A stretch of 64,000 nucleotides of DNA from an uncultured archaeon (GTDB lineage Archaea; Iainarchaeota; Iainarchaeia; Iainarchaeales; JAAZKV01). This document shows, one piece after another, positions 1,520-30,569 of this stretch; positions within the stretch are counted from its first letter, which is position 1, and every line of letters begins with the position of its first letter. Both the position numbers and the translations under genes were made by a program. The notes beneath the pieces are model-generated. The model was not told the origin of the DNA and did no database searches. It saw nothing but the letters and a program-made list of their open reading frames with translations. Where the stretch lies: contig CAZHNO010000001.1 in assembly GCA_964534045.1 (NCBI GenBank), positions 129,786 through 193,785 on the forward strand, read 5' to 3'.

Positions 1520-1562
1520 AAAATTTAATTAATTTATTTTCAGAAAAAAAGAATTTGCTTAT

Positions 1563-3038: not shown

Positions 3039-3145
3039 TATCAGGAGGAAATGGTTTAAATTAGTTTTCGTGAGCTGGTAATTTCAAATTAGACAAAAGA
3101 CGAAATAAGGATTTTTATTATAAAGGATAAATTTGAATTTTCTTT

Positions 3146-4042: not shown

Positions 4043-4984
4043 ATGGAGGCAACTGATTTTTTTAGAAAAACATTTGCATTTATTTTTGGAGAGGAAAAAT
4101 TAAATCACTTTGAAGAAAAATTATTACTTAATAATTCTTTCAAAGGAAAATTTGATTTCTTTTTACTATTTTGTGTTGGTGAAGGAATTGCTTTTTTAAT
4201 TGGGGCAATGTTTCTGTTATTTTATATTAATCTTGAGATAGATAAAAAAATAATTTTGGTTTGTATTGTTTTTTTTGTTCCTTTTTTGCTTAATTATTTA
4301 TGGCAAGATATTAAATTTGAAAAGCGAAAAAAGAAAAAGGAAGAATTACTACCTGAACTTTTGCTTGAAGCAAGTGTTTTTTATGATAATAATTCTTTGT
4401 TGAAAAATATTGAAAAATTAGCACAAATTGATTTGCCATTATTAAATGAAGATTTTGAAAGAGTGCTTGTTTGGATTAATAATGGTTCAAGTGTTACTGA
4501 GGCATTGTTTAGAATGAAAAGACTGAATAAAAGTAAGAGCATTGACAGGGTTGTTGATTTGCTTTTACAAGGTTATGAATCTGGAATTGAAATGAATGAG
4601 TTGTTGAAGGAAACTGCTGAAGATTTATTGGAAAATAAATCTATTTTAAGAGAAAGGCAGGCAGTGATGCTTGTAACAAAATATACTTTGTTTTTAGCAT
4701 CTGGTTTAATTGTGCCAAGTATTTTTGGCTTAATAATTGGTTTAGTGAATGGTCTGAATTTTGGTTTGATTGATAGTTTGGAAATTGGTTTAAGTGTTAC
4801 GGAACGAACAACCTTGTTTTCTTTTAGTGTGTTGGGAGCAAATATTTACATTATAGAATTTACTTTGTTAAGCAGTTTCTTTTTAGCTTTGCAAGAAAAT
4901 AATAAAAAACAATTTTGGGTTTTTGCTTTTTTATTATGCCCCATTGCTTTGATTTGTTTTTTTATTGCGCAAACTTTTATCTAA
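4043..4984 (+). CDS. T2SS-F domain membrane protein (TadC/FlaJ-like pilus platform protein), part 2
   Basis: It has TM helices plus the LPELLLEASVFYDNNSLLKNIEKLAQ T2SS-F-like segment. It is translationally abutted to the preceding gene. The split two-gene arrangement is Tad-like. Confidence 0.55.
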   Translation: MEATDFFRKTFAFIFGEEKLNHFEEKLLLNNSFKGKFDFFLLFCVGEGIAFLIGAMFLLFYINLEIDKKIILVCIVFFVPFLLNYLWQDIKFEKRKKKKEELLPELLLEASVFYDNNSLLKNIEKLAQIDLPLLNEDFERVLVWINNGSSVTEALFRMKRLNKSKSIDRVVDLLLQGYESGIEMNELLKETAEDLLENKSILRERQAVMLVTKYTLFLASGLIVPSIFGLIIGLVNGLNFGLIDSLEIGLSVTERTTLFSFSVLGANIYIIEFTLLSSFFLALQENNKKQFWVFAFLLCPIALICFFIAQTFI

Positions 4985-12574: not shown

Positions 12575-13888
12575 TTAAGACACATTTTTAACTAATTCCC
12601 ATAGTCCATTACTAACCCACATCCAATGATATCCATTAGGAGTTGCTATTCCAAATTCTTTGTAAATGTACGCTTCAGGCGAATATTTTTTATCAGCAAC
12701 ATCAAATTGTGCTCTTGTTGTACACCAATCCCCCCACTGTGCAGGCTGGTTTGTATAACCAAAATAACAAGTTTTTCTTTCTCCCTTATTTGGACTTCTT
12801 ATTCCTGGACAACCTGTTGAAAGTTTTTGTAAATCCATGTGAAAAAAATTATCCCAAATAACCCATTCATCAGGACAATCAACTAATTCTCCTCCCAACT
12901 TTGATTCAATTGAAGTAATTGGTAAATCAACTGGTGTTCCACGAGGATCATATTCATCCCCTTCCATAACGTTTGAGAAATCTATGTTTGGATTTGGGCA
13001 AGGATTTTGACTAGACTTATATGGATAATTTGGATTACAAATATCCTCAAAACCACTTTGAACAGGATATGGAAAAGAATTTTTTTCTTCTTCATTAACT
13101 TGATTGGTTTTATCTATTTCATTTTCAACATATGGACTTATTGTTAAATCAACAATTGAACAATTAAAATCAGGAGATTCTGTTAAATTGATTTCATTTA
13201 ATTCTGGAATGTCTGAAACAACCCACCCACTTAAACCAACTATAAATGGACGACCCATCTTTTGATTTTCAATTGCTGAAGAAAGAGTAACTTTTCCTAA
13301 TGCAGTATCTACTTTACCAACCTTTTGAAAAATTTGTTTTTCTAAAATTTCATTGTCATAAGGATTACAATAAAAATACACTCTTTCAACATCTTTTTCT
13401 CCATCGTAAGGCGGAAGACAACCATCACCAGTACACTGGTGAGTTGCTAATAATAAAAACAAATATTCATCTTCACTTTCACTTAAAATAAAAAAAGCAT
13501 AATCTATTGAAGTATCAAAAGGATTCATTACTTCATCAAGTGTTCGAGTAATTGCCATTCTTGTTTCGGGACTTATTTGTTGTTTGTCAGCATAATCTTC
13601 TTTTACTAGCGCAAGCAAATAATCATTTTCAAAAACTATTCCTTCATCTTCAACTTGTGAAAAAGATTTTCCATCTCTTACAACATTAATATAAGAAATT
13701 ACTTTTAATGAATCAGTGGCAAAATCTCTTGAATAAAAAGAATTTATTTGTTGTTCTGTTGGAATACCATAATTTATTGCGAAATAAAAAAGACTTGTAC
13801 AAATTATTGAAACTATGGTTAAGAAAAAAATTGAATCCATTAAAGCGGCTTGTCCACATTCATTTAGCAAAAACTTTTTCATTCCCAA
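12575..13888 (-). CDS. Pilin-like / pseudopilin-like protein with a large C-terminal domain (437 aa)
   Basis: The N-terminus has a short polar stretch, then GQAAL and a hydrophobic helix (ECG/QAALMDSIFFLTIVSIIC). It is the last gene in the minus-strand run of pilin-like genes and overlaps the upstream gene by 10 nt. Confidence 0.4.
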   Translation of the reverse strand: MGMKKFLLNECGQAALMDSIFFLTIVSIICTSLFYFAINYGIPTEQQINSFYSRDFATDSLKVISYINVVRDGKSFSQVEDEGIVFENDYLLALVKEDYADKQQISPETRMAITRTLDEVMNPFDTSIDYAFFILSESEDEYLFLLLATHQCTGDGCLPPYDGEKDVERVYFYCNPYDNEILEKQIFQKVGKVDTALGKVTLSSAIENQKMGRPFIVGLSGWVVSDIPELNEINLTESPDFNCSIVDLTISPYVENEIDKTNQVNEEEKNSFPYPVQSGFEDICNPNYPYKSSQNPCPNPNIDFSNVMEGDEYDPRGTPVDLPITSIESKLGGELVDCPDEWVIWDNFFHMDLQKLSTGCPGIRSPNKGERKTCYFGYTNQPAQWGDWCTTRAQFDVADKKYSPEAYIYKEFGIATPNGYHWMWVSNGLWELVKNVS

Positions 13889-15323: not shown

Positions 15324-15884
15324 TTATATTCTCCTATAAGTACAAATAACTGGATAAGTTTTTCCAGCAGCAGCAACATTTCTCAAAATATATGTTCCTG
15401 AACTAATTCTTTGTCCAGCTGCAGTTGGATTTAATGGTGTAAAACCACTTAAGTCAGCCTCATCAGTTGGACAATCAGTATCTGTTACAAAACTAGTGTA
15501 AACCGGCAAGTTCAAGCACTTTTGAATTAATCCATCAGCGATATCATCAGCACTAAAAGTAAAAACAAAACAAGACTCTACTGCTCTTCCACAAATATTA
15601 CCACACTTTTTGCTGTCTGAGTATTTATCTATTCGAACAATTGATTTGGTTTCATTATAACAAGAAGTTTCATTTGGTCTAAATTCAAATTTGTTTGATG
15701 TTCTAAATGAAGCGGTGTCTTCAAGTTTTAATTTAAATTCGGTTATTTCTTTATCAATAGTGGCTAAGCAAACTTGATCATTAGCATTAGCAATCATTTG
15801 TGAACCAATAATTACAACAAAACCCATTATTATTATTGCTACTAATAATTCAAATGGAGAATTAACTTGTGCTTTTGAATTCAT
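15324..15884 (-). CDS. Pilin-like protein with a class III signal peptide (186 aa)
   Basis: The N-terminus is MNSKA/QVNSPFELLVAIIIMGFVVIIG. It has K at -2, A at -1 and Q at +1, followed by the hydrophobic helix. Confidence 0.55.
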   Translation of the reverse strand: MNSKAQVNSPFELLVAIIIMGFVVIIGSQMIANANDQVCLATIDKEITEFKLKLEDTASFRTSNKFEFRPNETSCYNETKSIVRIDKYSDSKKCGNICGRAVESCFVFTFSADDIADGLIQKCLNLPVYTSFVTDTDCPTDEADLSGFTPLNPTAAGQRISSGTYILRNVAAAGKTYPVICTYRRI

Positions 15885-16241: not shown

Positions 16242-16778
16242 TTAACCTGATCTATTCAATATTACTACACAAAGTTTATCGAATCCAGCTTCTTCCCATT
16301 CAGTTGGAATGTCTGAAGTACCACCTTCAAAGTGACCATCCATTTTAGCATTTAATATTGATTCTTCCAAATCATCAACATTTGCTTCACAAACAATTGT
16401 GGCTTTTGCTTTTAAAGGACTTGAAGTTTCATTAGTAATTGAAGTAGTACAAATTCCATCACTCCCTTCTTCATAACCAGTATTTGTTATTTGCGAACCA
16501 AACTTTGCTGTTCCAAATATAAATGAACAAGGATCAACTCCTTTTGCTGCAAAGTGTGATGATCTAATTGTATAACCAGCCTCTATTTGAAAAACACCAG
16601 TATCTTTTTTACCATAACTTATTGAAGACAAAGAATTTCCAATTGTTGTTGTTGCATCCCCTGTTGGAGTAGTAATATTATTTATTATTGGTAACAAAAC
16701 AAATAGTATTGCTATTGCTACTATTGCCGCAATCATCAGTTCGAAAACACTAAATGCTTGTCCACGTTGATTAACCAT
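16242..16778 (-). CDS. Pilin-like protein with a class III signal peptide (178 aa)
   Basis: The N-terminus is MVNQRG/QAFSVFELMIAAIVAIAILFVLL. RGQ plus the hydrophobic helix matches the archaeal type IV pilin signature. Confidence 0.6.
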   Translation of the reverse strand: MVNQRGQAFSVFELMIAAIVAIAILFVLLPIINNITTPTGDATTTIGNSLSSISYGKKDTGVFQIEAGYTIRSSHFAAKGVDPCSFIFGTAKFGSQITNTGYEEGSDGICTTSITNETSSPLKAKATIVCEANVDDLEESILNAKMDGHFEGGTSDIPTEWEEAGFDKLCVVILNRSG

Positions 16779-16901
16779 AATTTTAACCTCCTTTAATTAA
16801 AGATAATTAACAAAAGAAAGCAAAGGTAGTATTTAAACTTTGTTAGTAAGTTGGCTTTGTGTAAGAAGTAAGGAAAACCCTTGACTTTCTACACAAGTTA
16901 A

Positions 16902-18158
16902 TTACTTTTTACACAGACTTGTATCAACCCCTAATTCATTAGTTTCATGTATCATTACTACTATGTTATGGCACAAAATCTTGAACAATAATTCGTTTAC
17001 TTGTGCAGTATAAGTTTTTGATTTTAAAGTATCATTGAATTTAGATTTAATCATGTGAAAAGTTGTTTCCGAATTACTTCTCAAGTGATAGTGTTTCATA
17101 AACTCTTCTTTGTTGTATTGGAAATAATGAAACATTTTTCGCCATAATCTGCCACGATTTCCTGTATGACAAGTAGCAGTAATATTCTTTGAATAAGGTA
17201 TGTATGCTTGTCCGCCCATTTCTGCAACTACATTATAACTTTCTCTTGAATTGTATGCTCCGTCTGCCGTTATTTCTTGAACATCAAAATTGTTTAATCT
17301 TTGAACAAGCGGTTTGAAGCTTGAAATGTCGCCTGTTCCTTCTCCGTAAGATTTAGTTATTTCTGCGGAGCATACAATATTTGTTTTCACTCCACTTAGA
17401 AGATGTGCTTTTAACCAAATATTCTTTTTTGTAGTTCCATGTTTTTCTTGACAATATTGATTAAATGAGTTAGTTCTGAAACCGCTACTATCTACTGCAA
17501 AATTCTTTTCTACACTCTTAAGAGTTTCTGCCGTCTTAGTAATCACATCTTTTAGAATTGGAGTTAGTTCTTCTTTTTGTAAGTAGTGTCCGATTGAAGC
17601 AAAACAAGGTTTCTTTTCAACAAATCCTTTTTCTTTTGCGTTATCTAAATCACTCATAAACCTTCTTAAAGAAAATTGTGTATAAACTTTTAGAGCAGAA
17701 GAAAAAAATAAATCTTTTTGGCTTATTTTTGGTCTTCCAAATTCATAAGGTGGTTCTTGAATATTAGAAGATAAATCGTTTAAGAGTTCTAAGAAGCGTG
17801 TTTTTTCTGTTTCTTGGGATTTGTTATAAACGCTCCATGCTTGAGGATAAGTTAAACGCTTAGTTTCAATATTAGTTACTCCGTTTTGAGTAGTCGCTTT
17901 TTGTAAATAGTATTCTACTGCGAAAGCGTGTTTGCATCTTACTTGTCTTAGTTGACAATCTGGACAATTACAATTATCCAAATGTTCTGAAACTAAATAT
18001 TTCTTTTTACTTGATTGACTACTTACTAAGTAACCTTCTTTTACTTTTGTTATTGCTCTTGTTTGAGCAATTATTTTTCCTTTTTCTTCTCTTTGATTTA
18101 TCATATTTAACCACCTTCTAATAATATATATTATATATATTATATAGTTTATGAACAT
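16902..18158 (-). CDS. Transposase with an N-terminal SWIM-type zinc finger and a C-terminal DDE domain
   Basis: The SWIM-like segment is CNCPDCQLRQVRCKHAF (CxC..C..CxH). The DDE-like segments are AVDSSGF, ITADGAYNS and SNSETTFHMIKSKF (IS4/IS5-like). Confidence 0.65.
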   Translation of the reverse strand: MFINYIIYIIYIIRRWLNMINQREEKGKIIAQTRAITKVKEGYLVSSQSSKKKYLVSEHLDNCNCPDCQLRQVRCKHAFAVEYYLQKATTQNGVTNIETKRLTYPQAWSVYNKSQETEKTRFLELLNDLSSNIQEPPYEFGRPKISQKDLFFSSALKVYTQFSLRRFMSDLDNAKEKGFVEKKPCFASIGHYLQKEELTPILKDVITKTAETLKSVEKNFAVDSSGFRTNSFNQYCQEKHGTTKKNIWLKAHLLSGVKTNIVCSAEITKSYGEGTGDISSFKPLVQRLNNFDVQEITADGAYNSRESYNVVAEMGGQAYIPYSKNITATCHTGNRGRLWRKMFHYFQYNKEEFMKHYHLRSNSETTFHMIKSKFNDTLKSKTYTAQVNELLFKILCHNIVVMIHETNELGVDTSLCKK

Positions 18159-18174
18159 AACTCTTTATAAATAG

Positions 18175-18192
18175 ATATGATATATATCATAT
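18175..18192. promoter_or_regulatory. Perfect 18-bp palindrome (atatgatatatatcatat) in the divergent promoter region; candidate operator
   Basis: Palindromy was verified by reverse-complementing the sequence. It lies about 30 bp upstream of the small RHH ORF and between the divergent transposase and MTase operons. A TA-rich TATA-like tract sits at 18124-18146. Confidence 0.4.
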
Positions 18193-18223
18193 ATAACAAA
18201 GATATTTAAAGGGGAAATACATT

Positions 18224-18372
18224 ATGAGTATGATGCCAAAGACAAAATATAAAGAACCATTTGTGCAAAAAGCAATTACAATAAGAAAAGACCAAGCTGA
18301 ATTTATACAAGACAATACTATTAATTTATCTAAATTTGTGCAAAAGAAATTAGATGAGTTGATGAAAAAATA
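18224..18372 (+). CDS. Small (49 aa) ribbon-helix-helix-like DNA-binding protein; possible R-M controller
   Basis: Hand translation gives MSMMPKTKYKEPFVQKAITIRKDQAEFIQDNTINLSKFVQKKLDELMKK. A beta-strand-like KAITIRK followed by two helices fits an RHH fold. It is immediately upstream of the MTase. Confidence 0.4.
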
Positions 18373-18419
18373 AGCTCGGCAAAGAACTAAGATTAAGTTT
18401 AATAATAAGTAATGGATTT

Positions 18420-19637
18420 TTGATGATTATGAAAAAAGAAAAACCAAAAGTCGTAAGTCTATTTTCTGGTTGTGGTGGGCTTGATTTAGGATTTAAACAA
18501 GCAGGATATGAAATAATTTGGGCAAACGATTTTGATAAAGATAGCGTTGAAACTTATAAAAGAAATATTGATGACAGAATAATTTTAGGAGATATCACAA
18601 AAATCCCAAGCTCACAAATACCAAAAAATGCAGATGTATTACTTGGTGGATTTCCTTGTCAAGGATTTTCAGTTGCAAACAATAAAAGAAATGTTGATGA
18701 TAAAAGAAACTTTTTGTATAAAGAAATGTTAAGAGTAATTAAAGATACTCAACCAAAATATTTTATTGCAGAAAATGTAAAAGGAATTTTATCACTTGGA
18801 AAAGGAAAAGTAATTGAAATGATAATTAAAGATTTTAATTCATTAGGATATAAAGTAGAAAAACCATTTGTAATAAATTGCTCATATTATGGAGTTCCAC
18901 AAAATAGAGAAAGAGTAATTATAATGGGAAACCGAATTAATGCACCAAATAAATTTCCTTTAGTAACACACAAAAATGGTTATCAAACTCCAATACCTGA
19001 TTTTATAAAACCTAAAAATTTTGAAAAATTACCTTATGTTATTTCAGTTAAAGAAGCTATAGGACATTTTCCTGAACCTGAAACTAAAGAAGGTAAGAAG
19101 ATACCTAACCATACTGCTTCAAATAATGTTCAAGGACATTATATTGCAAGAAAGAATGAAATAAAACAAGCAGATGTATGTGATTATCTAAAGTATTGGA
19201 GAGCAAAGAGAAAAATAACTACCCATAAAATTGATGAATTATTAGGATACAAGCATACTGCTGGGCATTGGTTTAGAAAAGATATTTCTGGCTCAATACC
19301 TTCTCCTGAAGATTGGTTAAAGCTAAAAGAAATTTTAAAATTTGATGACAAATTTGATAAATTAGTGACTGAAGTAGAAAAGCGTGAAATTAAATTTGAG
19401 CAATCATTAAGAATTACAAATTGGGATAGACCAAGTGACACAATAACTGCAAGTGGTCCAGAAATCCATGTTAATAAAAAAAGAAGATTGACTGCACGAG
19501 AATGTGCTACTCTTCAAAGTTTTCCTGATTATTTTATTTTTGAGGGTAGTTTGTCAAGCCAATATAGACAAATTGGAAATGCTGTTCCGCCATTAATTGG
19601 AAAACATTTTGCTAAAGAAATTAAAAAGAATTTATGA
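18420..19637 (+). CDS. DNA (cytosine-5)-methyltransferase, type II R-M modification subunit
   Basis: Motif I is FSGCGGLDLGF. Motif IV is GGFPCQGFS, with the catalytic PCQ. Motif VI is ENV (AENVKG). The C-terminus has QIGNAVPP. Confidence 0.85.
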   Translation: MMIMKKEKPKVVSLFSGCGGLDLGFKQAGYEIIWANDFDKDSVETYKRNIDDRIILGDITKIPSSQIPKNADVLLGGFPCQGFSVANNKRNVDDKRNFLYKEMLRVIKDTQPKYFIAENVKGILSLGKGKVIEMIIKDFNSLGYKVEKPFVINCSYYGVPQNRERVIIMGNRINAPNKFPLVTHKNGYQTPIPDFIKPKNFEKLPYVISVKEAIGHFPEPETKEGKKIPNHTASNNVQGHYIARKNEIKQADVCDYLKYWRAKRKITTHKIDELLGYKHTAGHWFRKDISGSIPSPEDWLKLKEILKFDDKFDKLVTEVEKREIKFEQSLRITNWDRPSDTITASGPEIHVNKKRRLTARECATLQSFPDYFIFEGSLSSQYRQIGNAVPPLIGKHFAKEIKKNL

Positions 19638-20330
19638 TTAATTTCTTTTATAGATTATTCTTTCTCGCCAGTCATCTATTGAAGTTAATTTTTTTATGTC
19701 AAATCTGATGTGTTCTAAGTTATTACTTTTTGTAGGATATGATTTTACTCCTGCAAGAATTGTTTTGTGTGTATTAAAAAATTGTCCGTTTGGTATGCAA
19801 ATGAAAGAAATTTGTTCTACAAGGTTAGTTGTTGACCAGATTATTCTAAGAAAGTAGGTTATATTTGGCACACTTCCAAATAATTTGTGTTTTTCATATC
19901 GGTGAAGTTTTGGTTTCCAAACAAATTCTTTTCCATTACCTTTAATGACTTTGTGAGAATTGTTATAATCAAATGATGTTTGATTTTGTCTTATATCCAT
20001 TCTGTTTGTGTTTCCTTTTACATCTCCGTCTGTATTAAGTATTGTTTTTGCGTCAATATGGACAATTGCATCTCCGCATTCATAACATGAGTCTGATGCT
20101 CCTTGCATTGAAGCTATTCCCCAATCTAATCGTCTTGCAATCATTGCGTTCATTATGTTTTCTACTCCAGATTCTATTGGATTTACTTTAGTTGATTGGG
20201 TATAGTTGGGTATGTTTTTTTGGCTATTTATTTCATTAATAAATCTTCCAATGTTATTTGATATGATATTGCTTATTATAGTATGATATTTTTTCTCTAA
20301 TTCTTCTAATTCAATATCTGATAAAGTCAT
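19638..20330 (-). CDS. Candidate restriction endonuclease, convergent partner of the MTase
   Basis: It is convergent with and abuts the C5-MTase, the classic type II R-M arrangement. There is a possible PD-(D/E)xK-like GDAIVHIDAK. No recognisable family could be assigned. Confidence 0.35.
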   Translation of the reverse strand: MTLSDIELEELEKKYHTIISNIISNNIGRFINEINSQKNIPNYTQSTKVNPIESGVENIMNAMIARRLDWGIASMQGASDSCYECGDAIVHIDAKTILNTDGDVKGNTNRMDIRQNQTSFDYNNSHKVIKGNGKEFVWKPKLHRYEKHKLFGSVPNITYFLRIIWSTTNLVEQISFICIPNGQFFNTHKTILAGVKSYPTKSNNLEHIRFDIKKLTSIDDWRERIIYKRN

Positions 20331-20445
20331 ACTAATCTAATATTTTATTAAATATAAAAATCTTTGGAATAGACTTTTTACACAACTTTCCGACTTTATA
20401 CACAAGTAACACTATTTACACAAAGCTTAGTAAGTTAGGTTAATA

Positions 20446-22335
20446 TTATTCATTTACAATTATTCTAAAACCTGGCCCTATTACAGTTTCCCAAGGTGGA
20501 TTGAAAGGAACTTGATCAGATCCTTCATCACAATTTGCACAAATTGCTCTATCTGCGCATCTAACTCCTGCCCCCCCAATTGAATTTGTTCCACGAACAG
20601 AACGATATAATCTTCCATTCATCAATTCATGTGGTGCACTTGGTCCAATCGGATCTACAAAAACACTATCTAGAGAATTAGTATAAATATAATAATCATA
20701 AATATCAAGGGCCCATTCACCTACATTACCATGTAAATCATATAAACCAAAATTATTTGGTGTTGCTAAACCAACTTCTTTCACAGGCATTGTTGGATAC
20801 CATGATGAAGAAATTTGGGCAAGTTCAGGGCACACTGATGGATTAGCATAATAATAATCTCCATCAATATCTCCACAAGTTATTTGTTTTCCATTTGGAG
20901 GAGTATTTAATCCAGTTGAAGTTCCTGCTCTACAAATATATTCCCATTGTGATTCTGTTGGTAAATCTATTTCAAGACCAGTTTTTTGTTTTAACTTTCC
21001 AATAAAAGAACTCGAACTTGGTGCTTTGTTGCCTGTTGGCCAACTCCCACCTCTCACAATACCCCAATGCACAGAGTGCACTGGCAATTTGTCCCCAACT
21101 TGTGGCCCAGGAGTAAAACTAATCCCTGTTCCTTCAATTGTATATGTTTGATATCCAAATGCACTTGCGTAGCCACTAAAACTACTTCCATAAACTAAAT
21201 CCCATTGTTTTTGTGTTATTTCAAAAACACCTGTGTAAAAACTTTTTGTTAATTTTACAATATGTAAATCTTCATCAATATCTGGATTTCCCTCATGTGG
21301 AAGTCTTCTTCCAGGTTCTCCTTCTGGTGAACCCATAGTGAAAGTACATGCTGGGACTTTTCGCAAAATAATTTTTGTTGTTTTATAAGCACTATTTGAT
21401 AACAAATCACTTGGTTTACTTGTTAGTTCAGTTACTGGATAATTAGTTGCGCTTGGCCCTCCTGAAATATCTATTACCAAATATTCATTTGTTAAATAAG
21501 CAGATAGGTTTTCTTCTGCAATACATTCCTCTAAATTTGCTGCAACACAAACATTATTCTGACAAGTTTTTCCTGTATCACATTTTGTTCCTTTTCCACA
21601 ATTATTACAAGGATTTGTAATTGCTATTGTTTGCCCACACTCAATTGTTGATGGTGAAGGACAAGGTGTGCAATCAGTTGTTTTTGATATGCACTTTCCT
21701 GATTGGCATGTTTGACTTGGTGGGCAAGAACCACAAAAGCCCTCACAACCATCAGAACCACACGCTTTATCTTTGCAATCAGGCTCACAATCTTTTGTTT
21801 TAGGATTGGTGTCAGAATCTATTTCTTCATCCTCTAATTTTTTTCCAAAAGAAACATCACACAAAATATCACAACAATCTTCATAACCTTCTGAAGCATA
21901 AATACAAACTTCATCACTAGGATAACATTTTACATAAACTCTCGCTTCAACATTTTGTTGAATGTCAATCATTTTTCCTTCTGCCAAAACTTTTCCAAAT
22001 GCTAAGTTTGAATAGAAAGTGAAACATTCATCTGACAAGCCAGTCACATCTCTCAAATTAGTTGAAGTAAAACCAGTCCCTTCAACAAAGACAAGTGGAT
22101 TTTCTGAGTAAAATACCTTTCCATTTGGTGACTCTTTTGCTGAATTAATAAGAGAATAAAATTCATTAATTGAAGTGCTTATTCTAAGACTTTGAAAATA
22201 TGTCATTGATGAAAGAATTAAACCAAAAATAACTAAACCAATTATTCCATCAATAAGTAAACGAAAAACAGTTCCACTTTGTGCTTTGTTATCCAAAAAA
22301 TTTTTTGAAGCTTTTTTTGATAAAAATTTTTTCAT
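20446..22335 (-). CDS. Pilin-like N-terminus + cysteine-rich module + FGE-sulfatase (SUMF1/EgtB-like) domain fusion protein (629 aa)
   Basis: The N-terminus is ...DNKA/QSGTVFRLLIDGIIGLVIFGLIL, a class III-like signal. A Cys-rich stretch follows (CEPDCKDKACGSDGCEGFCGSCPPSQTCQSGKC...). The C-terminus has LPTESQWEYICRAG, GLYDLHGNVGEWALD, RSVRGT...GVRCADRA and GPGFRI, matching FGE-sulfatase domain motifs. It lacks the catalytic CxxxxC pair of bona fide FGE. Confidence 0.5.
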   Translation of the reverse strand: MKKFLSKKASKNFLDNKAQSGTVFRLLIDGIIGLVIFGLILSSMTYFQSLRISTSINEFYSLINSAKESPNGKVFYSENPLVFVEGTGFTSTNLRDVTGLSDECFTFYSNLAFGKVLAEGKMIDIQQNVEARVYVKCYPSDEVCIYASEGYEDCCDILCDVSFGKKLEDEEIDSDTNPKTKDCEPDCKDKACGSDGCEGFCGSCPPSQTCQSGKCISKTTDCTPCPSPSTIECGQTIAITNPCNNCGKGTKCDTGKTCQNNVCVAANLEECIAEENLSAYLTNEYLVIDISGGPSATNYPVTELTSKPSDLLSNSAYKTTKIILRKVPACTFTMGSPEGEPGRRLPHEGNPDIDEDLHIVKLTKSFYTGVFEITQKQWDLVYGSSFSGYASAFGYQTYTIEGTGISFTPGPQVGDKLPVHSVHWGIVRGGSWPTGNKAPSSSSFIGKLKQKTGLEIDLPTESQWEYICRAGTSTGLNTPPNGKQITCGDIDGDYYYANPSVCPELAQISSSWYPTMPVKEVGLATPNNFGLYDLHGNVGEWALDIYDYYIYTNSLDSVFVDPIGPSAPHELMNGRLYRSVRGTNSIGGAGVRCADRAICANCDEGSDQVPFNPPWETVIGPGFRIIVNE

Positions 22336-22395
22336 TTACACACACCTTCATCTTCAAAAAATATTATTCATCATTCAAAATACTATTTATCAAAA

Positions 22396-24837
22396 TCACA
22401 TCATATTTGTTATTAATAAATTTGCCCCAATTGCTGTTACTAAAAATATTATTACTGCAATTGGTAAATATTTTGCCACATTTACCCTGAATAATAAATC
22501 ATTATCTTCTTGTACCTTTGTTGTAAAATAAATCATGATTATAACTATTTCAATTACATAAATTGAAATTATTAACAAAAACATTAATGGGGTAGCAAAT
22601 TGCCCAAAAGTTTCAACACTTACATTAAATAATTGATTTACATTTATTCCCCCACCTCCAGTAATTTGTGCCATATCCATATCTTTTGCTGCTTGAACCG
22701 CAGGATCTGTTACTACTCCAGCAAGAGTCATCATTACTACTTTTTGTAAAGAAACTGTTATTCCTAAAACAATTGGCCCAATAAATACTGCCATTGTCAT
22801 CATTGTGTTGCTTACTTCTGAAACTAAATCTTTCAAGGATTTATTTACTTTGTCCATGTTTTCCATTTGTAATGAGAGAGACATTAGTGTTCTTGAAGCA
22901 ACTTCAACTCCAAGAGAAACAGAATCAACTAATAATTGCATTGCGGTTTTTAGTGTTTTTGATGGAATTCCTTTCATTGAACCATACACTGGATCAAAAA
23001 CTGCTGCGTCTAATGGTAAACCCATTAGTTCAATATTTTCAATTGTTTTTCCAAATATTCTTTGACTAATTAATAAATTTGGTAAAAATTTTTGCGTGCT
23101 TTTTAATGCACTTTCAACTGGTTTATTTTCACCCATTCTTGATGCAATAACATACATTGATTCTTTGAATTCATCTTCCATTTTCATTATTTTTAATTGG
23201 GCTTTTCGTTTGTAAATATTTCTATAATACAAAATGAATGATGCTGCACATGCTAAAGTTATAATAAAGCCTGACCAAAACAAATATTTTGTTGGATCTT
23301 TTTTTGGATTACTAACAAAAATTAAATATTCTCTTAAAGCAGTTTCGTGAGCCAATCCTTCTTCAACACTTTCGGCAATTAATCTATTATATAAATCTCC
23401 ATCTTTAACACTAAAAAATAATTCAAACGCATACAAATCAATTAATCCTTTTCCTAATTCTGTTCTACTTAAACCGTCTTCTTCAAGAATTGTTCCTAAA
23501 TCTTTATCTGCTGGAAGAATTTGTAAGTACTGCATTTCTTCACTATTTCCCAATAATATTTTTGGAGGAAATCCTTGTGTTGATAATGCAAATGAACCTA
23601 AAATTCCAACAATAATAATTATTATTGCAACCATTCTAACATCTAATTTTCCATCCATTGACCATTTTCTTGGAAGCTCAGCAAAATCATCATTTATTTC
23701 TGGTGGCTCATAAGTTGGTGGTCTTTGACTAACAGTTTTTTTTGCAAATGAATAAGCAATTAGCGGAATTCCAACACAATAAATTAAAACTAAAATTATT
23801 GGATTAGCCATTGGACTTCCTGAAAATGCAGAACCAACTGGCAAAATAATAATTAAAATTAGCGGAAGTAAAACACCTAAATAGAATAACATTACTGCTG
23901 GTTGGTTTAGTGAACGAGCATAATCTTCCATTTTTCCTTTAACACTATCCAAAACTTCCAACATTGTTTTGTCTAATAATTCATATCTTCTTGCTTCGGT
24001 TGGTTCCATTACACTTGCTCTTATTTTCATTAGTGCATCTTTTAATTCTGAAGAATATTCTCCCCAACGATAAGCTAAACCATCTAAACCTTCGGCAACT
24101 GATTCATACAAACCTAATTGAAAATCCCATAACAATCTTTTGAATTCTGTTGCTAATCTTCCCCTTCCATGTTTTGCAGAAAATTCAATTGACTTTTCTA
24201 AATTAGGAACAAGCTTCATTGACATAATCATATAACCAACCATGTCTGGAACAGAAGTTAGTGCTTTATTTTGTTCTTCTTTTGCTGCATTTAATGGATA
24301 AGAATAAATCATGTAAACGCCCATTCCAAGAACACCAAATAAAATTAGAACTATCATCAAAAACATGTTGAAAGCCATTGATGTATCATAACCAAGTGCA
24401 TTCACAAGTATTGGCCCACCAATAATATCTGAAGTATTTATTTCTCCAATTTCAAAACCAAGTCCTAAAAAATAAATTAATGCAATCAAAATCAAAATTG
24501 GTATTATATAATTTACAAACGTGCCTTTTATTGCAGCCATGAAATCTCCCGGCGTTAATCTCCAGCCAAGGAACGCAACAGCATTTTTATGTTTTTCAGA
24601 AAATTTTGCATTTTTCCTAAAAGAAGGATATTTTTGCCCCATTTTTTTACAAAAAATAACGAATGGATTTTCTTTTTCTATTAAAATTTTTCCTTCGGTT
24701 TCTCCAGCAAAATCTTCACTAGTGGTTGAAATACTCCCATATCTTTGTCCAAGTGAAGAACCAAAAATACCTTGCTTATTATTACTTTTATCTCGTCTAG
24801 GCATCGCTAATAATAAACAAAAGAAGTATAAAAACAA
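22396..24837 (-). CDS. Large (813 aa) polytopic membrane protein, putative FlaJ/PilC-like pilus platform protein, set 2
   Basis: It has many TM helices separated by cytoplasmic helical domains. It lies immediately downstream of the FlaI-like ATPase on the same strand. Confidence 0.45.
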   Translation of the reverse strand: MFLYFFCLLLAMPRRDKSNNKQGIFGSSLGQRYGSISTTSEDFAGETEGKILIEKENPFVIFCKKMGQKYPSFRKNAKFSEKHKNAVAFLGWRLTPGDFMAAIKGTFVNYIIPILILIALIYFLGLGFEIGEINTSDIIGGPILVNALGYDTSMAFNMFLMIVLILFGVLGMGVYMIYSYPLNAAKEEQNKALTSVPDMVGYMIMSMKLVPNLEKSIEFSAKHGRGRLATEFKRLLWDFQLGLYESVAEGLDGLAYRWGEYSSELKDALMKIRASVMEPTEARRYELLDKTMLEVLDSVKGKMEDYARSLNQPAVMLFYLGVLLPLILIIILPVGSAFSGSPMANPIILVLIYCVGIPLIAYSFAKKTVSQRPPTYEPPEINDDFAELPRKWSMDGKLDVRMVAIIIIIVGILGSFALSTQGFPPKILLGNSEEMQYLQILPADKDLGTILEEDGLSRTELGKGLIDLYAFELFFSVKDGDLYNRLIAESVEEGLAHETALREYLIFVSNPKKDPTKYLFWSGFIITLACAASFILYYRNIYKRKAQLKIMKMEDEFKESMYVIASRMGENKPVESALKSTQKFLPNLLISQRIFGKTIENIELMGLPLDAAVFDPVYGSMKGIPSKTLKTAMQLLVDSVSLGVEVASRTLMSLSLQMENMDKVNKSLKDLVSEVSNTMMTMAVFIGPIVLGITVSLQKVVMMTLAGVVTDPAVQAAKDMDMAQITGGGGINVNQLFNVSVETFGQFATPLMFLLIISIYVIEIVIIMIYFTTKVQEDNDLLFRVNVAKYLPIAVIIFLVTAIGANLLITNMM

Positions 24838-24902: not shown

Positions 24903-27200
24903 TTAATTATTTTCTTCAGGTTCTTTTGCTTTTTGAACCATTGGTATTAGTTCTGTTAAAACCCAATTTTTATATTTTCCCAATAATTGATTGTAATCAA
25001 CTGTTCCATTTTCTTCAATTATTTCTTCTTTTAAAATCATGAGTTTGTTGGTTGCTTTGCTAGTAAATTCTGATTCTAATAATTTTTTCAAATTCAATTC
25101 ATTCTTTTTTTCTACAAGGAAAAGTTTTGCATTTCCTCTTAATCTTATTTCTGCCCAAATATCATTTACTGTCAAGCCAGAAATACTTTGTATTTTTTTT
25201 AGCAAATCAGATTCTTTCAAATTATCTTCTTGTAATTCAAGAGTGTCTTTTGCTGCATCATATTTCATTAAATCTAATAAGCCACCTTCTCTACTTGGAT
25301 CATCATTCCAATGTTTTTTAATTTCAGTAATTTCCACTACTCTTCTATGCCTTACAAGAGAGCCTTTAAATCTTATTGGACGAGCAACAATTACTAAATC
25401 AGTTGCTTTGAATGATGTTGTTGGAACACCTAAATCATTTACAACTCTATCCCATACTGAATAAGCTGAATCAGCGTGAATTGTTCCCATTACAACATTT
25501 CCAGCTGCTCCAACACGCATTGCTTCATACAATACTTTTGCTTCTGTGCTTCTTACTTCACCCAAAATTAATGCGGAGTCACCTAAACGCAAAGCTGTTC
25601 TTAGTGCTTCTTCTGGTGCAACTTCTGTTTCTGTTTTTGAAACACTAATGGCACTTTTTGTTTTCATTCTCTGAATGTTAAAACCAATTTCTTTCAAATA
25701 TGGAACAGGGAGTTCTTGAGTGTCTTCTTGAATTAAAATTCTTGAATTTTGTGGAATTTCTTGTATTACTGCACCAAGCAAAGAAGTTTTTCCTGAACCT
25801 CTACTTCCCGCAATAATTGTTGTGGTTTGCATATCAATAAAGAAAGAAATCATTCCTGCTGCAAGTGGATTTAGATAATTATTATCAATGAATTGTTCAA
25901 GAGTCCACGGAGTTAATTTGTGTAAACGAAAAGCAAAAGCTGGTCCACTGGGAGAAAGCGGAGGACCAATTACTGCCACACGAGTTTCTAATTCTTGCAA
26001 ATCAAAATCAAGCACTGGGTGTGCTTCATCAAATGGACGAGAAGACATTGCTCTTAATTTTGAAATCAAAGAGTTGGCTTCATTTTCTGTGAAAGTAACA
26101 TTTGTTTGACATTGTCCATAATCACTATGCACAAGATAAATTGGTTTTCCACCAATCGGTGAATCTAAATAAATATCAGTAATTTTTCTATCATTCAATA
26201 ATACTTCTAAAATTCCATAACCAACTGTGTATCTTGCAACAACCTTACTTAATGCAGACATTTCATTAGCATTTAATTGAACTTTATGAAATTTTGCTAC
26301 TTCTTTTATTGTTGCTTCATACATTCTTTCAAAATATTTTCTTGAAGTGGCAACCGTGCTCAAAGAAGTTTTTCCTGGTTGGTAAGAAGCAACTATTTCT
26401 CTTGTTTTACTTAAAACAAAATATTGATCTGGTGCAAGAGAATATTCTGGAGGATTAATAAAATACATTTTTTCAACTTTGTTTGGATCAGAAAAAACTT
26501 GTACTGTTGAATCACTAACAGTATATTCGTCCAATAAATTTAGTTCATCCATTCCTTTGAAAGAAAGTTTTGAACCAATGAAAGAAGGTTTTATTTCAAC
26601 TTCAAAAAGAGCTTTGTAAATTACTTTTGTATCAGGAACTTCTTGCAATTCAGTAAGAATTTTTTTTGCTCTAATAACCATTAGTGTTGCATCAAACCTA
26701 TTTCTCAAATCAATTAATGTTGCAATAAATGGTTCAGCACATTCAACATATCTTTGGTCACTTTGCTTCATCATTGATTCTTGTTTTTTTGATTCATTCA
26801 CAAGAGTTAAGTAAGCTAATAATGGATCAAAGTTAATCAAATCATTTGCAACTTTTACAATTAATCTGTGTCTGTCAGGAAAATATTGTTCACATTCTTT
26901 TATTGGTTTACCCAAATGATTATAACTCCAAATACTTTCTACAACTAATTTTTGTGCAAGGTTGGCTATTTCCATTAGCATTTGTGTTTGTTCTTTTTCA
27001 TAAACTCTTTCATAAACTTCTGCTAAAACAATTCTATCAGCTTCAACTTGTTGCAACACTTTTATTGCGTGAAATCTACAATGATGATCTTCTGCAATAG
27101 ACGCTGAATAAGCACAATGTTTACAATCAAATATTAGTGTTCTGCTACCACCAACATCTTTGACAACAAAATCTCCAACCTTAAAGCCACCAATCTTCAT
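24903..27200 (-). CDS. FlaI/GspE-family secretion ATPase with a long N-terminal extension (765 aa), set 2
   Basis: The Walker A motif is IIAGSRGSGKTSLLG. The Walker B is ALILGEVRS. The His box is VVMGTIHADSA. The extra about 300-aa N-terminus has a Cys/His cluster (CKHCAYSASIAEDHHCRFH). Confidence 0.75.
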   Translation of the reverse strand: MKIGGFKVGDFVVKDVGGSRTLIFDCKHCAYSASIAEDHHCRFHAIKVLQQVEADRIVLAEVYERVYEKEQTQMLMEIANLAQKLVVESIWSYNHLGKPIKECEQYFPDRHRLIVKVANDLINFDPLLAYLTLVNESKKQESMMKQSDQRYVECAEPFIATLIDLRNRFDATLMVIRAKKILTELQEVPDTKVIYKALFEVEIKPSFIGSKLSFKGMDELNLLDEYTVSDSTVQVFSDPNKVEKMYFINPPEYSLAPDQYFVLSKTREIVASYQPGKTSLSTVATSRKYFERMYEATIKEVAKFHKVQLNANEMSALSKVVARYTVGYGILEVLLNDRKITDIYLDSPIGGKPIYLVHSDYGQCQTNVTFTENEANSLISKLRAMSSRPFDEAHPVLDFDLQELETRVAVIGPPLSPSGPAFAFRLHKLTPWTLEQFIDNNYLNPLAAGMISFFIDMQTTTIIAGSRGSGKTSLLGAVIQEIPQNSRILIQEDTQELPVPYLKEIGFNIQRMKTKSAISVSKTETEVAPEEALRTALRLGDSALILGEVRSTEAKVLYEAMRVGAAGNVVMGTIHADSAYSVWDRVVNDLGVPTTSFKATDLVIVARPIRFKGSLVRHRRVVEITEIKKHWNDDPSREGGLLDLMKYDAAKDTLELQEDNLKESDLLKKIQSISGLTVNDIWAEIRLRGNAKLFLVEKKNELNLKKLLESEFTSKATNKLMILKEEIIEENGTVDYNQLLGKYKNWVLTELIPMVQKAKEPEENN

Positions 27201-27369: not shown

Positions 27370-28086
27370 TTGAATTTATACTATTACATGCAAAAAACTT
27401 TTTCTAGAGCACAAGGAACAATTGAATACTTAGTAATAATTGCAATTATTATTGTAATTGCTTTGTTTGTTACTTCTTTATTTAGTGGGGTATTTAATTC
27501 GAATGATACTGCTGAAAGTAATACTAAACTAAAAAACCAAATTGGTTATGGTGGAGTAAGTATTCTTGATGCAGCTACTGATTCAAATGGAGATGTAAGA
27601 TTAGTAATACAAAATGTTCTTGGAACGGGATACACAATCACAGGGGCAAGTAGTGAAGGAACTTCCCAATCCTCAAACAACTTTTTCTCCAGTGGACAAA
27701 AAGGAACTTATGATCTAAATAGTTTTTCTGAATGCGCTTGTGAAGAAGGGGAACTTACAAAAACTTGCACAATTAACTTATACTTACTTGCGGAAAGCAC
27801 TCTGGATCGTAACACAACAATCACTCTCGAAATTGACTGTGTTGAGGACATTATAGTCAGAGGAAGTTATATTTCTGAAAGTACAGGTGAAGAAAGCGAA
27901 AGCGGAACAATTAATTTAGATTGCACTGATTTAGATGTAAGTTCATCTGGATTTGTAACTTGCTCAGGAACAACAACACTATTATCAGATACAAATCTTT
28001 TAGGCACATGGAACTTAGATGATTTAACAGCAGGCACTGATGTTAATACAACTGGAACAGATGAAATTACTTTAGCGGAGCAATGA
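27370..28086 (+). CDS. Pilin-like protein with a class III signal peptide (238 aa)
   Basis: The N-terminus is ...KTFSRA/QGTIEYLVIIAIIIVIALFV. This is the archaeal pilin QGxxEY-type signal. The C-terminal domain is Thr/Ser-rich. The gene overlaps the next gene by 4 nt (ATGA). Confidence 0.6.
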   Translation: MNLYYYMQKTFSRAQGTIEYLVIIAIIIVIALFVTSLFSGVFNSNDTAESNTKLKNQIGYGGVSILDAATDSNGDVRLVIQNVLGTGYTITGASSEGTSQSSNNFFSSGQKGTYDLNSFSECACEEGELTKTCTINLYLLAESTLDRNTTITLEIDCVEDIIVRGSYISESTGEESESGTINLDCTDLDVSSSGFVTCSGTTTLLSDTNLLGTWNLDDLTAGTDVNTTGTDEITLAEQ

Positions 28087-29873
28087 TTTTTATGAAACGA
28101 GAAATTGGAATTATTTTGATTTTACTTTTTACAATTGGTTTTGTTTTTGCTTTTAGTGGAAGTGGTTCTGGAAGTTCAGAAGACCCATATCAAATTACTA
28201 CGTGCACTCAATTACAAGAAATGGATAATAATTTAACAGCAGATTACAAATTAATGCAAGATATTGATTGTTCAAGCATTGAAAATTTTGAATCAATTGG
28301 TGATTGGTGGAGTAGTCAAGTTTTTACTGGAAACCTAAATGGAAATTCAAAAACAATTTCTAATTTAACAATTAATAGTAGTTCAAGATATATTGGTATT
28401 TTTTCTGACTTAAGAGGAGATGTTAATCACTTAGTTTTGTTAAATCCAACCATTACAAGCACAAGTGATGGAACTGCTGCTTTAGCGGGTAGAACTGATG
28501 GAGCATACATCTATGATGTTAATGTACTCAATGCCACAATAAATGGAGGCTATTATGTGGGTGCGCTAGTTGGATACAATTACAATTATTCAACTATTAC
28601 AAACTGCCACTCAAGCGGAACAATAACTGGAACTGGAATTTATGCTGGTGGGATAACTGGATCAAATCATGTTTCAACAATTACAAATTGTGATTCTAAT
28701 GCCACTGTAAATGGAACTGAAGAAGTTGGTGGAATAACTGGTTACAATTGGGGCGGAACAGTAATATATTCTAATTTTTCTGGACAAGTTAATAGCACCA
28801 TAATCAACGCTGGTGGAATATCTGGTGGAACTAGTGGCGGAACAATTAGTCAATGTTATTCAACCGGAGATATCAATGGGGTGAGTAGAGTTGGTGGGAT
28901 AGCTGGAAGACTAGTTGGAACAATAACTAATTCTTATTTCACTGGAACAGTTAGCGGAACAAGTGAAGTTGGGGGGCTTACTTCTGCATTCAGAAGTGAT
29001 TCAACAATAACAAACTCTTATTCAAATGGGCTTGTTACTTTTACCAGTTCAGGAGGGGGATTAATTGGTTCTTGTGATGGTGGTTGTGGAAGCATAACAA
29101 ATTCTTATTGGGATACTCAAACCTCTGGACAAGAAACAAGTGCGGCAGGGACTGCAAAAACAACTTCACAACTTTCTCAACAATCAACTTACTCAAGCTG
29201 GGATTTTTCAGCAATATGGACAATTAGTGAAGGGTCAACTTATGCTTACTTTGATTGGCAAACAGAAAATATCCCAACAGTGAGTGAAACAACTTATTAT
29301 TCAACAGGAACATTTACTTCAAAAACAATTTCACTTGGAAGTGCAAAAGATTTTAATTTATTAAATTTTTCTATTACTGAACCTAGCGGAACAAATGTTC
29401 AATTTCAATTAAGAAGTGCAACAAGTGAAGTTGGTTTGGATTCTGCAACATGGTATGGCCCAACAAGCACAAGTGATTATTATACTACAACAGGAACAAC
29501 AATTAATTCTGTGCATGATGGAAATTCTTGGGTGCAATGGAAGGGTTATTTGAGTGGAAATGGTTCAGCAACACCAACCATAACTGATGTAAATATTTTG
29601 ACAACAAATCATATTGATTCTAATGCAATTTTTGTTGGAGGAAGTGGAACAAGCAGAACATGGAGCACTTACAGCATTTCACAAACATTAAATTCTGGAA
29701 GTATTAGTTGGTTTTACTGCACTAGCTGGCCTTGTTCAAGTTGGACTTCTTTAGAAAGCACAAGTGGAAGTTTGAGTGGAACAAGTGCATATATTTATTT
29801 TAGAGGATTAATGTCAGCCTCAAGCACTAACAATTCACCAAGCATTACACAAATAACAATTAATTATGAGTAA
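28083..29873 (+). CDS. GLUG-motif repeat surface protein (596 aa), co-transcribed with the pilin-like gene
   Basis: It has a signal peptide and then about 25-aa tandem repeats of the form xVGGIxGxNxGGTIxNSYxTGxVxG. Examples are EVGGITGYNWGGT and RVGGIAGRLVGTITNSYFTGTVSG. These are characteristic of the GLUG motif family. Confidence 0.5.
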   Translation: MIFMKREIGIILILLFTIGFVFAFSGSGSGSSEDPYQITTCTQLQEMDNNLTADYKLMQDIDCSSIENFESIGDWWSSQVFTGNLNGNSKTISNLTINSSSRYIGIFSDLRGDVNHLVLLNPTITSTSDGTAALAGRTDGAYIYDVNVLNATINGGYYVGALVGYNYNYSTITNCHSSGTITGTGIYAGGITGSNHVSTITNCDSNATVNGTEEVGGITGYNWGGTVIYSNFSGQVNSTIINAGGISGGTSGGTISQCYSTGDINGVSRVGGIAGRLVGTITNSYFTGTVSGTSEVGGLTSAFRSDSTITNSYSNGLVTFTSSGGGLIGSCDGGCGSITNSYWDTQTSGQETSAAGTAKTTSQLSQQSTYSSWDFSAIWTISEGSTYAYFDWQTENIPTVSETTYYSTGTFTSKTISLGSAKDFNLLNFSITEPSGTNVQFQLRSATSEVGLDSATWYGPTSTSDYYTTTGTTINSVHDGNSWVQWKGYLSGNGSATPTITDVNILTTNHIDSNAIFVGGSGTSRTWSTYSISQTLNSGSISWFYCTSWPCSSWTSLESTSGSLSGTSAYIYFRGLMSASSTNNSPSITQITINYE

Positions 29874-29963: not shown

Positions 29964-30569
29964 ATGCAAAAAAAGAATTCATTTTTTGAAAATATAAATA
30001 ATTACACAAAACCTTTACAAAAATATATTAAAACACAAGAAGAAAAAATTAAAAAAAATCCAAAAAAACAATTGAGTTTTTTTATTCTCGGGTTTATATT
30101 ATTTTATTTAATTTTTACAACTATATTAATTCCATTTCAAATGCCAATAAAAAATTTTACTGGAGAAGTGGTTGTTGGTTTTTTGAGTGTTCAAGGTTTG
30201 GAAATTGAAAAAAATGGTTTTGTTTTGGATGAATTTGGGGAAGAAAATTATACTTTCACTCTAAAAGAAAAAAGTCAAGTTTTTTTTATTTCATGGTTAT
30301 GCACAGGAATATTAGAAATAATAATTTTGTTAGGAGCAATTTTTGCTAGCTTTGGAGTTAATTGGAGAAAGAAATTATTAGGAATGAGTGGAGCAATAGT
30401 TGCTGGAATAATTTTTAACTTTATTAGAATTTGGTTAACAATAAACATTTTTATTTTAACAAATGCTGAAACAACAAATATTGCGCATGATTTGTTATTC
30501 AGATTGGTGCTTTTTATATACATTTCAGCATATTATATTATTTGGTTTAATTACACTCAAAGGAAATGA
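29964..30569 (+). CDS. Small polytopic membrane protein, possible short archaeosortase/exosortase-family protein (201 aa)
   Basis: It has about 5 TM helices. A conserved-looking Cys sits in a TM (ISWLCTGILE). An N..R motif (FNFIRIW) lies about 42 aa downstream, and a second Arg (LFRLV) follows. This spacing is reminiscent of the Cys/Arg active-site layout of ArtA-like enzymes. The assignment is speculative. Confidence 0.3.
   Translation: MQKKNSFFENINNYTKPLQKYIKTQEEKIKKNPKKQLSFFILGFILFYLIFTTILIPFQMPIKNFTGEVVVGFLSVQGLEIEKNGFVLDEFGEENYTFTLKEKSQVFFISWLCTGILEIIILLGAIFASFGVNWRKKLLGMSGAIVAGIIFNFIRIWLTINIFILTNAETTNIAHDLLFRLVLFIYISAYYIIWFNYTQRK

Follow-up and report, generated by a model that had tools for sequence, protein, structure and literature searches.

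Modular pilins are widespread in bacteria, where a survey keyed to the prepilin signature IPR012902 recorded >1,200 proteins in 264 architectures (PMC8179133); in Streptococcus sanguinis, a vWA module is found on PilB and a lectin module on PilC (PMC8179133). For the Treponema denticola variable protein 1 (TvpA), which has an FGE-type C-type-lectin fold, ligand binding but no FGly-generating activity has been reported (PMC5758913). Archaeal type IV filament loci, such as the Sulfolobus bindosome, the Methanococcus Epd locus and the so-called 'system 2', include adhesin-like proteins and proteins with binding domains (PMC4858521). The gene described here is located at 20446..22335 on the minus strand of a 64-kb stretch of DNA from an uncultured archaeon of the Iainarchaeota (assembly GCA_964534045.1, contig CAZHNO010000001.1, positions 129,786 to 193,785), referred to below as the window, and encodes a protein in which a pilin-like module is joined to a module of the FGE-sulfatase fold. 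The entry IPR005532 is taken here to be this FGE/SUMF domain. Eight entries with the architecture IPR012902-IPR005532 are found in the survey dataset (PMC8179133), so pilin-FGE fusions already exist in bacteria, although uncharacterised, and a pilin scaffold with an FGE domain is less unusual than had been assumed in an earlier note on this DNA.

The gene product is probably an archaeal modular pilin, with a lectin-fold adhesin displayed on a pilus. With respect to the definition of modular pilins given by Raynaud et al. 2021, residues 19-169 of the protein represent a family that is otherwise stand-alone, and residues 284-629 hold a PF03781 domain, which is not specific to type IV pili.

The open reading frame (ORF) was confirmed with exactly the boundaries first given for it and with a length of 629 aa, and a Shine-Dalgarno-like GAAGGTG (22343..22349, minus strand), read from the sequence, lies 7 nt 5' of its ATG. 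An identical protein (P0001) is present in an NCBI record from a 314-kb contig, and its cluster consists of one sequence from one contig. The window has a GC content of ~30% and carries archaeal housekeeping genes, including those for an archaeal-type prolyl-tRNA synthetase (ProRS) and PAC2. The protein is composed of four parts, all encoded on the minus strand: a leader peptide of residues 1-18 (MKKFLSKKASKNFLDNKA; 22282..22335), for which a motif scan predicted a prepilin-peptidase site KA/Q; a pilin-like module of residues 19-169 (21829..22281), with a hydrophobic N-terminal helix, Arg+7/Asp+11 and a beta-sheet head with 6 Cys, ending in ...CCDILCDVSFGKKL; an acidic, Cys-rich linker or stalk of residues 170-283 (114 aa; 21487..21828); and an FGE-sulfatase-fold (C-type-lectin-like) module of residues 284-629 (346 aa; 20449..21486), which includes the YLVIDISGGPSATNYPV pre-domain. 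The N-terminal helix is the sole hydrophobic segment of the 629-aa protein.

The N-terminus reads MKKFLSKKASKNFLDNKA/QSGTVFRLLIDGIIGLVIFGLIL, and the motif scan found the pattern [KR][GA]/Q...F-x-L in three ORFs of the window (15324-15884, 16242-16778 and 27370-28086), so that the prepilin-like signal shared with neighbouring pilins, as claimed in the earlier note, is indeed present. Over 156 members of the family, position -1 of the cleavage site is G/A in 100%, position -2 is K/R in 82% and position +1 is Q, after a leader with a median length of 7 aa. As in class III signals, the leader of the protein ends in [KR][GA] and is followed by a hydrophobic helix, and the site is also kept in nine orthologs. 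The family signature is QSG(A/T)VFRLM(I/V)D(A/G)IIGL; position +7 is Arg/Lys in 77% of the 156 members and Glu in seven only. In the AlphaFold2 (AF2) model of the module, obtained from a 37-sequence family alignment with a predicted local distance difference test score (pLDDT) of 89.3, a continuous helix of residues 17-68 (52 residues) is followed by 8 beta strands, and the predicted shape is that of a pilin 'lollipop', with the N-terminal helix packed on the beta sheet. The module is a member of a DPANN (Iainarchaeota-like) family, and its pilin-type character is upheld by the conservation of this pilin-like family and by its fixed place in a type IV pilus-like operon. Homology of the head domain with the neighbouring pilins was considered and rejected, the BLASTP comparison not being significant. 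Fold searches gave this domain no clear link to solved pilins or archaellins.

The assignment of the C-terminal module to the FGE-sulfatase (SUMF1-like) domain was confirmed by both profile and fold. Pfam PF03781, whose cut-off is 23.3 bits, matched residues 327-549 with 55.4 bits and E=9.4e-15, and the AF2 model of the module had a predicted template modelling score (pTM) of 0.84. Foldseek matches, all with a probability of 1.00, included PvdO (6e-12), TvpA (1.5e-10), ToxD and FGEs (about 1e-8); PvdO was the first match both in Foldseek and among single-sequence searches of the PDB, and TvpA the third in Foldseek. When a subfamily profile was compared with solved structures, the best match was TvpA (PDB 2Y3C, E=1.6e-36), followed by the true FGEs with E-values near 1e-30. 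The motifs LPTESQWEYICRAG, LHGNVGEW and VRCADRA were all found in the protein. In the alignment with human FGE, whose catalytic cysteines are located in GGSYMCHRSYCYRY, just ahead of RCAAR, the equivalent segment ahead of RCADR is GTNSIGGAGV, which has no Cys to match Cys336/Cys341 of FGE; the absence of the catalytic pair noticed earlier is therefore real. The scores were also below the NCBIfam equivalog cut-offs for PvdO (44.8 vs 500), GldK (41.9 vs 350) and GldJ (21.9 vs 458), so the protein lacks both attributes of a bona fide FGE, the catalytic pair (CxxxxC before RCAAR) and a curated equivalog match. The missing cysteines, the unreached cut-offs, the closeness to TvpA and the related surface protein P0035 (see below) all favour a role of the module in binding over one in catalysis.

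The closest homologs of the FGE-fold module by score are bacterial secreted proteins (36-42% identity) with 2-4 tandem modules, and the locus of one of them has a clearly bacterial gut-metagenome context. The tail of the window protein is of the RCADR and not the CRSAxR subtype, with a 14-aa Cys-containing insert. The same 'RC + Cys-insert' subtype was found in P0035 (locus L016, 753-3614), a protein of 953 aa encoded on a 35%-GC contig, which combines a single FGE module and Cys-rich repeats with a Sec signal and a transmembrane anchor at the C-terminus and is accordingly a surface protein. P0035 suggests that uncultured organisms of low GC content have a pool of FGE-fold surface modules. A separate observation was made on the gut-metagenome bacterial proteins P0002-P0031 (L014, L015), with 2-4 tandem FGE modules, whose C-terminal tails show invariant positions interspersed with hypervariable ones, as do the variable regions of diversity-generating retroelements (DGRs).

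Within the linker, an acidic stretch comes first and is followed by 17 Cys arranged in two roughly 8-Cys units. This region had been described as Cys-rich EGF-like repeats; its Cys-rich nature stands, but neither an EGF nor any other model of Pfam or NCBIfam matched it at E<=1, so the EGF-like label is unsupported, and its assignment to EGF or any other named Cys-rich repeat family was rejected. No relative of the pilin module and none of the bacterial FGE homologs has this linker. Its inheritance from bacteria together with the FGE module was not seen either: P0035 alone has a weakly similar region, namely its Cys-rich repeats.

The stalk and the FGE-fold module have been grafted onto a subunit that is otherwise stand-alone. 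A search with residues 1-285 returned four homologs only, all of them stand-alone proteins of 165-168 aa ending in ...CCEIxCxVSFGKxL, which corresponds to residues ~155-168 of the query. An exhaustive phmmer search with residues 1-170 against 1.84e9 representatives gave 153 family matches; among the best 150 of these 153, nearly all were stand-alone proteins of 130-200 aa, aligned end to end with query residues 14-168, and the query alone had a large C-terminal domain. A profile search of a set of 5.8e9 sequences recovered 36 proteins of 129-204 aa, none of which (0/36) had a Pfam domain. Furthermore, the orthologs from nine syntenic loci (about 150-185 aa) align to query residues 1-169 only, and their C-terminus coincides with the start of the query's linker. 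Since the family is stand-alone and the orthologs stop where the linker starts, the C-terminal extension is a lineage-specific graft, which is so far unique and specific to this genome. The fusion is thus real and exceptional, its relatives encoding the ~165-aa pilin-like part only; the same fusion, which was to be sought in related genomes, was not found there, as all nine syntenic orthologs are without the graft.

The location of the gene inside a pilus operon was correctly recognised, with a secretion ATPase gene and the gene of an 813-aa membrane protein directly upstream and pilin-like genes downstream. The T2SSE/FlaI-type ATPase (24903..27200, minus strand; 765 aa, with an extended N-terminus) matched Pfam T2SSE at 2.2e-18 and NCBIfam FlaI at 3.2e-46, the latter under the equivalog cut-off, and its orthologs in L003 and L010 are 78-86% identical. 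The conserved polytopic membrane protein of 813 aa (22396..24837, minus strand) is a putative platform by position only, and orthologs 60-73% identical to it adjoin the pilin-like gene at 8 loci. The next operon gene on the other side encodes a 178-aa pilin (16242..16778, minus strand; RG/QAFSVFELMIAAIV..., Glu+7), the N-terminal ~30 aa of which are nearly invariant in 7 loci and which is likely the major pilin; the operon also encodes a 186-aa pilin (15324..15884, minus strand; KA/QVNSPFELLVAIII, Glu+7). In nine independent loci (L001, L003, L004, L007-L009, L011-L013), as far as the contigs reach, the gene order is ATPase, ~800-aa membrane protein, ortholog of the FGE carrier, ~175-aa pilin, ~51-64-aa membrane protein, ~188-aa pilin and proteins of ~260, ~200 and ~250 aa. 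The named relatives of the operon are metagenome-assembled genomes of Ca. Iainarchaeum ('ainarchaeum'), Diapherotrites and Micrarchaeota, all of them DPANN archaea. Throughout the nine operons, the FGE-carrier ortholog has Arg+7/Asp+11, whereas the ~175-aa pilin, with a nearly invariant QAFSVFELMIAAIVAIAILFVLLPI, and the ~188-aa pilin, with SPFELLVA, have Glu+7; the FGE carrier is therefore read as a specialised, non-major (minor) subunit. Its Arg+7 could pair with the Glu+7 of a neighbour in the filament core, or internally with Asp+11 (i/i+4).

Two further observations concern the upstream genes. The 813-aa membrane protein could represent a platform protein that is novel or highly divergent. 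In L003 (1-3519) the ortholog of the pilus ATPase is broken by an intein (Pfam Intein_splicing and LAGLIDADG_3), and the ATPase of the window is without one.

The proposed mechanism is as follows. The carrier would be a conserved minor-pilin-like subunit made up of a class III leader, a hydrophobic helix and a small disulfide-bonded beta head. After insertion into the membrane, its leader would be removed at KA/Q by a prepilin (class III signal) peptidase, and the machine formed by the ATPase and the membrane protein encoded upstream would build the N-terminal helix into a pilus with the Glu+7 pilins encoded downstream. The disulfide-rich stalk would hold the FGE-fold module off the filament, probably at its tip, a position made probable by the bulk of this module, which in turn may bind a ligand on a surface or on the host cell of the DPANN archaeon. 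For the protein as a whole, display at the filament tip and a role in adhesion are suggested by analogy with known systems.

The operon of the window is interrupted by a 3.57-kb transposon (16854..20426), outside the gene and located between it and the 178-aa pilin gene; none of the syntenic loci has this element. Its ends are perfect terminal inverted repeats of 11 bp (GCTTTGTGTAA), outside of which the target-site duplication is seen as a 10-bp direct repeat (AACTTACTAA) at 16843-16852 and 20427-20436; each of the two sequences occurs exactly twice in the 64-kb window. It encodes, according to Pfam and NCBIfam, a DDE_Tnp_1+SWIM transposase (16902-18158), a dcm-type m5C methyltransferase (18420-19637) and a putative restriction endonuclease (19638-20330), so the restriction-modification system is cargo of the transposon. 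The duplication starts 9 nt 3' of the stop codon of the FGE-bearing gene. With the transposon taken out, an 83-nt spacer with an AAGGAGGT Shine-Dalgarno sequence ahead of the 178-aa pilin gene is restored; the FGE-bearing gene was therefore an ordinary in-line member of the operon before the insertion. The possibility that the graft was brought by this block of restriction-modification and insertion-sequence genes was rejected, given that the block has its own inverted repeats and 10-bp duplication and starts 9 nt past the stop codon.

A second graft was detected in the same operon. The 437-aa protein encoded at 12575..13888 (minus strand) has a pilin-like N-terminus (G/QAALMDSIFFL), and its orthologs from 7 loci, of 243-276 aa, align to residues 1-249 only, so that residues ~250-437 are a second window-specific C-terminal graft. 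This region of about 190 aa is Cys/Trp-rich, unrelated to the FGE graft and without a match in Pfam or the PDB (residues 250-437). It hints that C-terminal grafting on pilus subunits may recur in this genome.

Several results weigh against the interpretation of the protein as a modular pilin. The Pfam model Class_IIIsignal (PF04021) did not match the 629-aa protein at E<=1, the sole match among the ORFs of the window being 27370-28086, and no prepilin peptidase gene occurs within the 64-kb window. The 813-aa membrane protein had no T2SSF match at E<=10 and only a sub-threshold one to DUF2207_C, and its identification as a T2SSF/TadC platform is unsupported by Pfam or the PDB. In the AF2 model of the FGE module the ligand-facing tail (residues 331-342 in the numbering of the model) is poorly modelled, with pLDDT<50. 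The fusion is known from a single metagenome-assembled contig, with no metagenome duplicate, and the transposon may disturb the expression of the remaining downstream pilin genes. A rival reading is a receptor anchored outside any filament, whose class III-type N-terminus serves as a membrane anchor or enters a short pseudopilus-like structure in the manner of the Sulfolobus bindosome, with the FGE module at the envelope. The head domain without a detectable fold match to pilins is in keeping with such a receptor, as are the known archaeal class III signal proteins that have binding domains and are not classical pilins (bindosome, SPIII proteins), and the related P0035 shows the same type of module borne by a membrane anchor. 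This alternative is nevertheless considered unlikely: the carrier is strictly conserved in an operon of pilus type that encodes two or more Glu+7 pilins, and for the family members of ~150 aa that stand alone, no role is obvious except that of a filament or assembly subunit. Very improbable is an active enzyme of the FGE/PvdO/EgtB oxidative type, tethered at the surface and modifying pilins, surface proteins or a small molecule. Membership of the PF03781 superfamily, the first place of PvdO in Foldseek and in the single-sequence PDB matches, and the database names of some homologs ('SUMF1/EgtB/PvdO family nonheme iron enzyme') speak for it, but neither FGE catalytic cysteine is present, the scores lie far under each NCBIfam equivalog cut-off (44.8 vs 500 for PvdO and 41.9 vs 350 for GldK), the operon has no sulfatase or partner gene and TvpA, the nearest relative by profile, is reportedly not an enzyme.

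Very unlikely, too, is a diversified receptor whose C-terminal tail would be rewritten by a DGR as its variable region. Among DGR targets the largest class is that of FGE-sulfatase C-type-lectin proteins, and DGRs occur commonly in DPANN (PMC5758913); TvpA is the best match of the subfamily profile, and in the tails of the bacterial homologs conserved positions are interspersed with hypervariable ones, as in variable regions. Nevertheless, no direct repeat of the 3' end of the gene (20446-20600) that could be a template repeat exists anywhere in the 64-kb window, and no reverse transcriptase match was obtained in about 25 of its 40 ORFs of >=110 aa, the scan leaving aside two giant 3' ORFs (2357 and >2117 aa) and short, mostly overlapping antisense ORFs (111-173 aa). 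As neither a template repeat nor, among the scanned ORFs, a reverse transcriptase was seen, the module is not regarded as a DGR target at this locus. The query tail, with RCADR and the 14-aa insert, also deviates from the variable-region consensus and has no Asn/AAY-rich pattern. In the one bacterial homolog locus examined there was no reverse transcriptase within 10 kb, and the homologs are therefore not claimed as proven DGR targets. It is equally hard to credit that the fusion is an artefact, due either to chimeric assembly or to a sequencing error that deleted a stop codon and joined two genes, although it occurs on one contig only, its source is a metagenome-assembled genome and a mobile element directly adjoins the gene. 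A second copy of the junction was not found by exact-sequence contig look-up or by a Joint Genome Institute (JGI) metagenome scan with a junction-spanning query, and the fusion therefore rests on one contig. Nonetheless, the reading frame remains open for 460 codons beyond the junction, and the extension starts exactly at the natural C-terminus of the family, with a typical acidic linker. The GC content at third codon positions (GC3) is equal on either side of the junction, being 0.15 in the linker, 0.135 in the FGE module and 0.12-0.16 in the surrounding host genes; the graft is therefore neither a fresh import nor an obvious chimera, and a recent import from high-GC bacteria was likewise rejected on account of this uniformity. 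The duplication made by the transposon lies 9 nt past the true stop codon, so the graft predates the insertion or is independent of it, and a comparable graft exists on a second protein of the operon.

Other genes of the window are only briefly described. A second type IV filament set is encoded at 101-4984 (plus strand), with a T2SSE ATPase (101-1519) and two adjacent T2SSF platforms (3146-4042 and 4043-4984); the ProRS gene (1563-3038, minus strand) separates the ATPase from the platform genes of this set, and the split platform is the arrangement described for archaeal 'system 1'. The region 28083-64000 (plus strand) encodes a GLUG-repeat protein (28083-29873) and an exosortase/archaeosortase-family protein (29964-30569; TIGR04178, 39 bits vs a cut-off of 23), beyond which lie four giant ORFs (2729, 2827, 2357 and >2117 aa); the window ends within the last of them. 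These four ORFs have hardly any Pfam matches and no recognised C-terminal sorting signal.

The modular pilin interpretation extends a design surveyed so far by the bacterial prepilin signature only to an archaeal type IV filament system. DPANN archaea are tiny and mostly host-attached, and how they recognise and hold their hosts is largely a mystery, for which this protein is a concrete candidate attachment factor; the graft-free sister operons with the same subunit offer a natural control. The practical limit is that the fusion comes from one metagenome-assembled contig. FGE-fold binding modules circulate among the surface proteins of low-GC uncultured organisms. A tentative extension, suggested by the grafts on the Arg+7 subunit and on the 437-aa subunit, is that DPANN pilus subunits may act as interchangeable carriers of receptor-binding modules; if this were true, and the grafts set the host cell or surface, archaea would have a plug-in way of changing their host range that differs from hypermutation by DGRs.

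With respect to TvpA, its closest solved structure by subfamily profile, the window protein shares the FGE fold; however, TvpA is a DGR-diversified lipoprotein, whereas here the module is borne by a pilin-like carrier, has another tail subtype and is accompanied by no template repeat, variable region or reverse transcriptase found in the window (scanned ORFs). The human SUMF1 and the bacterial FGEs share with it the Pfam family, the fold and the motifs WEYxCRxG and RCAxR. In human FGE these two motifs hold the structural disulfide Cys235-Cys346. Unlike FGE, the window protein lacks the Cu-binding catalytic pair Cys336/Cys341 (GGSYMCHRSYC in human); FGE is a soluble maturation enzyme, whereas the window protein is predicted to be extracellular, on a pilin-like anchor. 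Large minor pilins with extra domains that have been proposed as filament caps, namely GspK of type II secretion and TcpB/CofB of type IVb pili, resemble it by analogy only. GspK is without Glu5. In each case the conserved acidic residue is replaced, here by Arg+7/Asp+11 in place of Glu+7, and the comparison of tip placement has no basis in homology or structure.

Among the archaeal loci, 'system 2' is similar: its ATPase is extended at the N-terminus and it has one membrane component and several pilins, with large proteins resembling adhesins close by (PMC4858521). Neither of the two accounts of the bindosome, Epd and 'system 2' loci considered here (one of them PMC4858521) describes an FGE-fold module or this carrier family, and the adhesin candidate of the window differs from theirs in being an in-frame graft on an otherwise stand-alone operon subunit. 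Like PilB and PilC of Streptococcus sanguinis, the window protein has a small pilin module to which a bulky C-terminal module is joined via a linker, belongs to a type IV pilus operon as a minor pilin and is expected to have a role in adhesion, probably at the tip (PMC8179133). It differs from bacterial modular pilins in its DPANN carrier, with a [KR][GA]/Q class III site and without detectable resemblance to bacterial pilins in sequence or fold, and in its linker, a 114-aa stalk with 17 Cys; moreover, its graft is found in a single genome, whereas PilB orthologs are ubiquitous within the species of PilB. Since bacterial modular pilins, pilin-FGE fusions and archaeal adhesin-like loci have already been described, the protein is an independent archaeal example of a known modular design, not a new kind of system.

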